Shown here: in pieces, positions 1 through 1,614 of the stretch
Position numbering within the stretch: position 1 is the first letter of the stretch
Layout of the letters: every line of letters begins with the position of its first letter
Assembly (NCBI RefSeq): GCF_003334255.1
Contig: NZ_QOWU01000133.1
Reading direction: 5' to 3' (one strand)
DNA: 2,469 nt
Source: Escherichia coli
GTDB taxonomy: Bacteria; Pseudomonadota; Gammaproteobacteria; Enterobacterales; Enterobacteriaceae
Notes under the pieces: generated by a model
The model's database searches: none
What the model was told of the DNA's origin: nothing
Seen by the model: the letters and a program-made list of their open reading frames with translations, nothing else
Position numbers and translations under genes: made by a program

Positions 1-1094
1 CAGGTCTCGCCCAGCGTGGTGTTCACAAAGGTTTTCAGGCCGTTGGGATCTTTCAGTGCATCCAGCCAGTCATAGACAATCTGTACCCAGGTGGTGAACG
101 GACTGTACGCCGTCCAGATATGGAATGTGATGGAGCGCGGCGGCGGAATTTCATTACCCGCAGCGCTGAAAAACGTCAGGCCGTCACGGGTCCACATGCC
201 CGTGTTTTCACAGATCCACCGCCCGTTGCTCTGGTCAAGATCAGACTGATGGATCACGCAGCCATGATGTTCACAGAGGTAGAAAACACTTTCTGGACTG
301 TCCTTCTCCCATTTAAGGCCAAAAGGCGTGGACTCATCGCCAAATTTCAGATACTGCGCCTCCCCACAGTGTGGGCAGGGCACATAAAAACGCATGAAAT
401 GCGCCGACTCGTTGGCCGCTTTTTCGATCTGGCAGGAGCCTTTTATTTTAGGCGTCGAGCCGCGAATGGATTTTGGCCATACCGAGCCCTCAATACGCTT
501 ATCCCCCAGCAGGGTTGGCGAGCCCTCTTTTTCGACATCCGGCTCGAACGAGGAAAGTTCGTCATAGCAGACCACGTCCACGGATTTTTCACGGTAGTTT
601 TTGGCGGCAGCACCACCCAGGCACCAGAACCCCACACGGGACGTGAATCTTTTTAATGTCAGTGTGTTATCCCGGTGCTTACGCCCCAGCCAGGGGGAAA
701 GAATTTTCAGACAGGGAACATCCCGTAATGTTGACTCCACATGAGACTTCATAAAATCTTCAGCGGCAGAATCCGTAGGCTGAAACAGAAGACTGTTACG
801 GTTTTTATGCTCAATAAAGTAACCAATAACGCCCATCAGCATTTTGGTGTAACCGACTCGAGCTGATTTTATAAGATTAATTGTGCGGATCCGGTCATTA
901 CCCATGCAGTTCATTATTGCCACCTGAAAGGGCAACGTCTTCCACCGCCCAGCAAGATAAGAGGACTCCGGGGGCAAATAATAATTTTGATCGGCCCATT
1001 CAACGGTGGTTACAGGCAGTGGGCGTAAAAGCCCACGAAGTGCCACTCCACAAACAACAGCAAAGTTATTTAGCTGCTTCTCTGAGGTATTCAT
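1..1094 (-). CDS. A: Terminase large subunit (lambda gpA-like), N-terminal 364 codons; partial, 3' end lies beyond window start
   Basis: Hand translation of the minus strand from ATG at 1094..1092 is open to the window edge (register: plus triplets starting at positions divisible by 3). It reads [100 protein letters not shown]...[12 protein letters not shown]...[18 protein letters not shown]...[41 protein letters not shown]. This is colinear with my recalled lambda gpA N-terminus (MNISNSQVNRLRHFVRAGLRSLFRPEPQTAVEWADANYYLP...KSARVGYSKML...VDVAGYDELAAF...[17 protein letters not shown]...[12 protein letters not shown]), including the KSARVGY ATPase motif and the YDEL acidic motif. GGAG Shine-Dalgarno about 7 nt upstream of the ATG. 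Absent from the ORF track because it has no stop in the window. Confidence 0.9.
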
Positions 1095-1614
1095 CCAGCA
1101 TCTCCGGTAACTTCTCTGCCGTTGATGCGCATCGGTTTGCCGCCTTTGCTATATCGGTTTTCAGGAAATCAAGCATAGCGGGCGTCAGTGCCGGAAACTG
1201 TCTCTGCATGGACAATGGAATGGAGTCAAGAATGGCAGAGATCTCCTGTGCCAGTCTTCCCAGAGCAAAAAGGCAAAACCCTGTATCAATGACCTGCCCA
1301 CTGTCGCGGGCATTTTTCAGTTCCTGTGCATCTGCCTGTGCCTTCGTCAGTCGGTAACGTTCGTAATCAATGGTGCCGGGCTGAAGGTCTGATTCGCTGG
1401 CAGCCCTCAAATCCTCGACCTCTTTACGGAGTTTTTCATTTTCAATATCAGCTTCGCGCTGAGCATACCATTCGATCGCCTTCGCAGAATCAAAGATGAC
1501 CTCAACACCTTTTCCTCCACCAGATATCTGAGGGAGCCCCTGAGTTTGCCAGCGATCAATAGTGCGTATATCGACATTAAAGATTTCAGCAAGCTTCTTT
1601 TTATTAACATTCAT
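1066..1614 (-). CDS. nu1: Terminase small subunit (lambda gpNu1-like), 182 aa
   Basis: ORF-track protein [110 protein letters not shown]... is homologous along its full length to my recalled lambda Nu1 ([105 protein letters not shown]...). N-terminal DNA-binding helix-turn-helix region and GGGKG motif are conserved. AAGGAA ribosome-binding site about 8 nt upstream. Sits immediately downstream of cos, as in lambda. Confidence 0.93.

Follow-up and report, generated by a model that had tools for sequence, protein, structure and literature searches.

A predicted large-terminase start codon inside the small-subunit gene at the nu1/A junction of a lambda/21-type Escherichia coli prophage

In several phages, the genes for the small (nu1) and large (A) terminase subunits are annotated as overlapping: by 26 nt in lambda, phi80 and HK225, where A starts at GTG, and by 29 nt in phage 21 (for which the ribosome-binding site is also annotated), N15, PhiR12_1 and Pseudomonas phage MD8, where it starts at ATG. 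The holoenzyme protomer contains two Nu1 and one gpA, rather than one of each (PMC2366019, PMC9410871), and the C-terminus of Nu1 binds the N-terminus of gpA (PMC3224144 Table 2; PMC4669245). The mechanisms of translational coupling and the precedents for it have been reviewed (PMC12548453, PMC10666635). In tight termination-reinitiation, stop and start codons overlap or lie a few nucleotides apart (ATGA, TGATG; −8 to about +6 nt), and long overlaps are rarer than those of 1 or 4 nt and typically uncoupled (PMC10666635). The 34-nt overlap of the coat and lysis genes of RNA phage fr is the reference case for reinitiation by back-scanning (PMC10666635, PMC12548453).

The window, by which is meant the whole stretch of DNA analysed (2,469 nucleotides), matches prophages of several complete E. 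coli genomes at 100% identity and Escherichia phage PhiR5_1 (PV340545) at 99.1%. By its gene content and sequence it holds the normal nu1/A junction of a cos phage of the lambda/21 type, present here as an E. coli prophage. Read along the minus strand, the end of Rz/Rz1 is followed by cosN, nu1 and the first 364 codons of A:

2469..2170, minus strand: end of the spanin genes Rz and Rz1 (PHROG spanin matches)
1802..1791, minus strand: cosN cohesive-end sequence GGGCGGCGACCT (chance expectation 0.01 matches)
1614..1066, minus strand: nu1, terminase small subunit, 182 aa, ATG at 1614..1612 (open reading frame list, Pfam, PHROG 57)
1068..1066, minus strand: nu1 stop codon TAA (direct reading)
1..1094, minus strand: A, terminase large subunit, first 364 codons, continuing past the left end of the window (Pfam, PHROG 15)

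A sequence-only reading of this DNA had named the two genes nu1 and A, and profile searches bore this out. Nu1 matched PF07471 Phage_Nu1 over residues 1–163 (E = 1.3e-81; 164 model positions), a full-length match that includes the N-terminal winged-helix DNA-binding domain and places the protein in that family; residues 1–98 matched the lambda Nu1 structure 6hn7 (E = 2.6e-42), and protein identity was 65% to phage 21 gp1 and 62% to lambda Nu1. The gpA fragment, assigned to PHROG 15 (E = 5e-198), showed the succession of ATPase and endonuclease domains by which lambda-like gpA large terminases are recognised, with PF05876 GpA_ATPase at residues 47–293 (E = 4.8e-55) and the start of PF20454 GpA_nuclease at residues 323–364, up to the window end. 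The position of cosN upstream of nu1, flanked by sequence that could be aligned to its phage 21 and lambda counterparts, and the order Rz, cos, nu1, A are those of the lambda/21-type cos packaging module. Among solved structures there was no match for the gpA fragment, and the matches to Nu1 were N-terminal only, up to residue 98. No NCBIfam family was matched by Nu1 or gpA, an Rfam scan of the window gave no match, and a scan for promoters and terminators found none at the junction and none exceeding shuffle expectation.

At the junction the minus strand reads, in the nu1 frame, ...TTA CCG GAG ATG CTG GAT GAA TAC CTC AGA GAA GCA GCT AAA TAA, and the A reading frame lies at +1 relative to it. 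The elements of the junction are as follows:

1087..1110, minus strand: Nu1 C-terminal motif L-P-E-M-L-D-E-Y, identified by Nu1 alignment, whose codons hold the A Shine-Dalgarno match and start codon
1105..1102, minus strand: Shine-Dalgarno-like GGAG, formed from the nu1 codons CCG GAG (Pro-Glu), with a 7-nt spacer to the A ATG
1094..1092, minus strand: A start ATG, which straddles two nu1 codons, taking its A and T from GAT (Asp) and its G from GAA (Glu)
1066..1094, minus strand: dual-coding overlap of 29 nt, encoding Nu1 residues 173–182 and stop (D173 in part) and gpA residues 1–9 and part of residue 10

The putative ribosome-binding site and start of A are embedded in the codons of a conserved Nu1 motif, LPxxL-D-E-Y, so that the final 29 nt of nu1 would be read in two frames. 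Going upstream from ATG 1094, the A frame stays open for 18 codons, none of them ATG, GTG or TTG, which makes ATG 1094 its first possible start. The duplex predicted between GGAG and the anti-Shine-Dalgarno sequence at the 3′ end of 16S rRNA has an energy of −6.6 kcal/mol, but a match at least as strong occurs at 7.4% of positions within nu1 genes and is therefore unremarkable when taken alone. The sequence-only reading had placed the out-of-frame 29-nt overlap between the A ATG at 1094..1092 and the nu1 stop at 1068..1066, with a GGAG Shine-Dalgarno inside nu1. Direct reading recovered all of these elements, and the ribosome-binding site of phage 21 is annotated at the homologous position. 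The overlap itself is already in public records: GenBank (PhiR5_1) and RefSeq independently carry identical nu1/A coordinates.

Conservation of the junction was assessed in two scans of viral contigs, which added 160 loci and yielded 24 and 27 distinct junctions, or about 48 once shared ones were removed. An ATG or GTG for A occupied a single alignment column in 47 of these approximately 48 distinct junctions (23/24 and 27/27 in the respective scans), a column that falls within the Nu1 C-terminal motif L-[D/N/S]-[E/D]-[Y/F]. The distribution extends to Pseudomonas phages with approximately 30% Nu1 identity, and in none of the sampled lineages did the A start lie outside nu1. An alignment of eight sequences showed gpA M1 to be an invariant column, and residues 1–16 could be aligned across the family. 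The window belongs to this class of junction, characterised by a +1-frame A start in the last 26–29 nt of nu1, at the L-[DNS]-[ED]-[YF] column, with a purine-rich Shine-Dalgarno-like core 7–9 nt upstream. Relatives have GGA, GGG or AGG as this core in the equivalent position; its median energy of −4.3 kcal/mol is equalled or beaten at 23% of arbitrary nu1 positions.

Overlap length varied, being 26 nt in lambda (GTG), 29 nt in most junctions and 38 nt in one clade, in all cases 2 modulo 3, because Nu1 runs on past the motif for a differing number of residues. As the column is fixed and the length variable, it is the internal start that is conserved, rather than the length of the overlap. Conservation of overlap length was the alignment check that the sequence-only reading had proposed; the start position was conserved (in 47 of about 48), whereas length ranged from 26 to 50 nt. 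Its likening of the overlap to that of lambda needs similar adjustment: the resemblance is real, but lambda has 26 nt with GTG, and the 29-nt ATG form is that of phage 21 and N15. The longest overlap would be found in the single exception, locus L018, in which CAG occupies the start column, the Shine-Dalgarno match is gone (CCAGAT) and nu1 is intact; the in-frame alternatives there are an ATG seven codons upstream, which would give an overlap of 50 nt, and an adjacent upstream TTG, which would give 32 nt. Two GenBank records also deviate, Hali with an overlap of 23 nt (second ATG) and JBD68 with none (downstream TTG), but both possess an ATG in the homologous column and encode an N-terminus that aligns with the others, and the deviations therefore look like annotation choices.

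Several lines of evidence indicate that the internal start is used. Lambda, phi80, HK225 and N15 have, in the A frame, a TGA right before the start and no further start codon ahead of L19, where the invariant residues of the conserved N-terminal region begin, so that initiation inside nu1 is the sole option in those phages. Moreover, substitutions carried the mark of coding in the A frame within the overlap. A minimum spanning tree joined 68 distinct junction segments of 153 nt, and the changes along its edges of ≤20 differences, hence among close relatives, are given here as synonymous : non-synonymous:

Upstream of the start (nu1 only): A frame 3 : 43, nu1 frame 44 : 8
Inside the overlap: A frame 9 : 3, nu1 frame 2 : 8
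Downstream (A only): A frame 50 : 12, nu1 frame 2 : 55

In the A frame, then, the pattern turns from non-coding to coding precisely where the overlap begins (Fisher p = 4e-6, on overlap counts that are small, 12 and 10 events, and from sequences that are phylogenetically related). At greater divergence the overlap was intermediate in both frames (29:59 and 31:53), which indicates dual constraint. Selection could also be seen at a Nu1-synonymous site: in a Pseudomonas-like set (61% G+C), GAT makes up 24% of Asp codons and AAT 11% of Asn codons, yet the codon giving the A and T of the start was NAT in 25/25 distinct junctions. The junction is moreover the most diverged part of the region relative to phage 21, with 38–41% nucleotide identity, compared with 93–100% in A to the left of approximately position 600, and the architecture of the start column has persisted despite this. 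Taken together, these patterns show ATG 1094..1092 as the predicted point from which gpA is translated.

Two other accounts of how gpA is made fare poorly against the same data. Initiation past the nu1 stop, leaving the genes without a true overlap, would have to use GTG 1046..1044 (codon 17), which is in frame and is the sole other candidate before the invariant L19. No Shine-Dalgarno match lies at a usable distance from this GTG (+1.5 kcal/mol), and both the family-wide alignment of residues 1–16 with an invariant M1 and the A-frame substitution pattern inside the overlap speak for coding upstream of it; lambda and N15 have no start codon at all between column 1 and L19. A PhiR12-type clade, to which the window does not belong, does carry ATG ATG one nucleotide after the nu1 stop. 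A downstream start, which the sequence-only reading had named as the finding that would count against it, was accordingly rejected for the missing Shine-Dalgarno match and the coding pattern of the overlap, and we regard it as very improbable. A fusion of Nu1 with gpA through +1 ribosomal frameshifting, within the overlap or ahead of it, is harder still to credit: it would be permitted in the window by the 18 open A-frame codons upstream of the ATG, but it was rejected because lambda-type phages (lambda, phi80, HK225 and N15) have a TGA right ahead of the A start, and neither a slippery motif in the overlap nor a conserved stimulatory structure was seen.

RNA structure offered little to distinguish the A start from its surroundings. 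RNAalifold found 0 consensus pairs over 19 diverse junctions, and the local fold of the window was no better than shuffles (z = −0.31). The conserved structure sequestering the downstream ribosome-binding site that defines coupling of the RNA-unfolding type was not found. The energy needed to open the A start was about average: the family mean was 8.5 kcal/mol, and the median for coding sequence 9.7 kcal/mol. In the window the nu1 start was open (3.8 kcal/mol) and the A start was not (8.4 kcal/mol), but this contrast was dropped as evidence because it was absent across the family.

Whether A depends on translation of nu1 is a matter on which we lean, by a little, towards loose translational coupling, on top of some independent initiation. 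Each ribosome completing nu1 would cross the A initiation region and terminate 26 nt past the A start, and as that region combines a modest Shine-Dalgarno match with a structure that is not unusually open, translation of nu1 probably modulates that of A. Passing or terminating nu1 ribosomes might hold the A site unfolded or reinitiate there, and gpA output would then follow that of Nu1, at a lower level. A precedent for backward reinitiation across a long overlap is the 34-nt one of phage fr. Equally, ribosomes in the course of translating nu1 could block the A site, so that fewer start there. Coupling of the tight termination-reinitiation kind is not what is seen, given an A start 26 nt upstream of the stop and overlaps of 26, 29, 38 or 50 nt, and the variability of the stop-to-start distance argues against it. 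The proposal in the sequence-only reading that the overlap fixes the Nu1:gpA subunit ratio is speculation, and with a holoenzyme of 2:1, simple one-to-one coupling would not alone set that ratio. A literature search found no experimental test of coupling for nu1/A, although several older papers were outside its reach. Murialdo et al. 1987 reportedly linked weak translation of A to Nu1.

The chief competitor to loose coupling, plausible if somewhat short of probable, is that an internal ribosome-binding site of its own suffices for A to initiate at ATG 1094, without need for nu1 translation. The overlap would then be frozen genome compaction, or the product of a stop-codon shift extending Nu1 into A, and the Nu1:gpA ratio would be set only by the strengths of two ribosome-binding sites. 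The window itself is kind to this account, with a fairly good, optimally spaced GGAG (−6.6 kcal/mol) and no conserved inhibitory structure, and the family's overlap lengths of 26, 29 and 38 nt, combined with a weakly constrained Nu1 tail (2 : 8), are what would be expected of a drifting stop codon; long overlaps typically do arise from stop-codon loss, without coupling (PMC10666635). Less easily accommodated are the weakness of the Shine-Dalgarno match in most relatives, whose median of −4.3 kcal/mol is no better than that at 23% of random nu1 positions, an A start region no more open than ordinary coding sequence, and the persistence of the arrangement to approximately 30% Nu1 identity with the A start never outside nu1. 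The weak match would suit dependence on nu1 translation, but simple low expression would account for it just as well.

The overlap may in addition keep the mutually binding segments, the Nu1 C-terminus and the gpA N-terminus, inseparable in mosaic genomes. Inseparable contact segments would fit the pattern of recombination relative to phage 21, in which nu1 and the 5′ part of A (to approximately position 600) have diverged and the rest is 93–100% identical. This rationale is compatible with either coupling or independent initiation. It is conceivable, though we think it unlikely, that the last 7–11 residues of Nu1 (after D-E-Y) are mainly a translational device and less a working part of the protein, a weakly constrained read-through that would carry nu1 ribosomes across and past the A start, and that LPxxLDEY is held as much by its role in A initiation as by what it does in Nu1. 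Were this so, enterobacterial and Pseudomonas phages alike would conserve the junction as a dual-coding element, with co-evolving Nu1/gpA contact segments locked together against recombination.

The practical value of these observations lies in annotation: the true start of a gpA-type large terminase would be sought inside the small-subunit gene, at a predictable column, and some public records, such as JBD68 and Hali, miss it. If loose coupling is correct, the junction would be a conserved natural example of a long (26–38 nt) overlap linking the subunits of a 2:1 complex, in a class of long-overlap coupling for which experimental evidence is thin. Coupling, even if true, would leave the understanding of terminase and of packaging unchanged.

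Compared with described systems, the junction is like that of phage fr coat/lysis in having a long out-of-frame overlap with the downstream start well upstream of the upstream gene's stop, but the genes are unrelated, the fr genome is RNA, and coupling, for nu1/A a proposal, has been demonstrated experimentally in fr. Lambda nu1/A (NC_001416: 191..736 and 711..2636) shares the gene order, the frame relationship, the cosN sequence GGGCGGCGACCT and the start column, which in lambda lies within L-S-E-Y, its Shine-Dalgarno match coming from Pro-Gly codons (CCGGGG); it differs in its GTG start with TGA directly before it and in its 26-nt overlap, lambda Nu1 being one residue shorter. Closer still are genes 1 and 2 of phage 21 (GenBank M81255), with a 29-nt overlap, an ATG in the same motif column, a ribosome-binding site annotated at the homologous place and a large-subunit gene 93–100% identical to the left of approximately position 600, although the small subunit has 65% protein identity, the junction 38–41% DNA identity, and the Shine-Dalgarno match is GGGTGG rather than the GGAG of the window. 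PhiR5_1 (PV340545) and the JE86-ST05 prophage (NZ_AP022815), 99.1% and 100% identical to the window respectively and with the same 29-nt overlap, are the same element.

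Among the roughly 48 distinct junctions compared, the column that holds the canonical A start, inside the C-terminal motif of nu1, lacks a start codon in one only. This sole exception, the relative locus L018 (IMGVR_UViG_2531839666_000033; 1177-1226), reads CAG at that point and has lost the Shine-Dalgarno match too (CCAGAT); nu1 is intact there at 182 aa, and if A began at the in-frame ATG found at 1177 the overlap would be 50 nt, and if at a TTG at 1195 it would be 32 nt. A different variation was seen in the PhiR12-type clade (L019, L050, L067, L048 and their relatives), where A has two in-frame ATGs at its codons 11-12, the first lying 1 nt past the nu1 stop (TAA-T-ATG-ATG), and where the canonical internal start has a weak GGA core only (-3.3 kcal/mol). 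From this arrangement it is conceivable that the clade uses a second, reinitiation-type A start, which would shorten gpA by 10 residues. The window differs in being without the ATG-ATG, its A codons 11-12 reading TTT GCT.

In two further relatives it is the annotation that departs from the conserved column. GenBank starts the large terminase of Pseudomonas phage JBD68 (L010, KY707339) at a TTG 26 nt past the small-subunit stop, and that of Hali (L007, PQ533658) at a second ATG:

JBD68: conserved-column ATG at 582, GenBank start at 636
Hali: conserved-column ATG at 583, GenBank start at 589

Because the conserved-column ATG is present in both phages and encodes an N-terminus that can be aligned with those of relatives, the GenBank starts have probably been placed too far downstream.

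The strand opposite the junction also carries an open reading frame:

881-1357, plus strand: 158-aa ORF antisense to the nu1/A junction

The pattern of substitutions in the stretch analysed, at about 1003-1155, agrees with the nu1 and A frames, so this ORF is most likely spurious. Both Nu1 and gpA of the window had strong matches in Pfam and PHROGs, in contrast to NCBIfam release 20, a search of which returned no family for either protein.

Similarity to phage 21 is uneven along A. To the left of about 600, A shares 93-100% identity with phage 21 (L003) and PhiR12_1 (L002), and comparison with these two relatives places a mosaic joint within the gene at about 600-650. At the nu1/A junction (1134-1015), identity to phage 21 falls to just 38-41%; the 5′ region of A, as far as about 600, and the small subunit thus share the same divergence from this phage. 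Upstream of nu1, the window holds three further features:

1791-1802, minus strand: cosN cohesive-end site, GGGCGGCGACCT
2170-2469, minus strand: 3′ part of the Rz spanin gene, with a PHROG spanin match
2232-2417, minus strand: Rz1 lipoprotein gene, an embedded ORF wholly within the Rz 3′ part in another frame

With Rz1 nested in Rz, the window has another overlapping pair besides nu1/A, and the PHROG spanin matches of these two genes have E values of 8e-48 and 7e-31. The cosN sequence is identical in lambda and phage 21, and the flanking cos region can be aligned with both phages as far as the nu1 start, showing that the window takes in the packaging site, where the lysis genes give way to the head genes.

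Overlap lengths elsewhere in the head operon are not uniform among relatives. At the A/W junction (L001 and L171, 4788-4804) the overlap is 17 nt, as in phage 21, compared with 4 nt (ATGA) in lambda (L004, 2633-2636); the W/B overlap is 4 nt in the window's phage, phage 21 and lambda alike.
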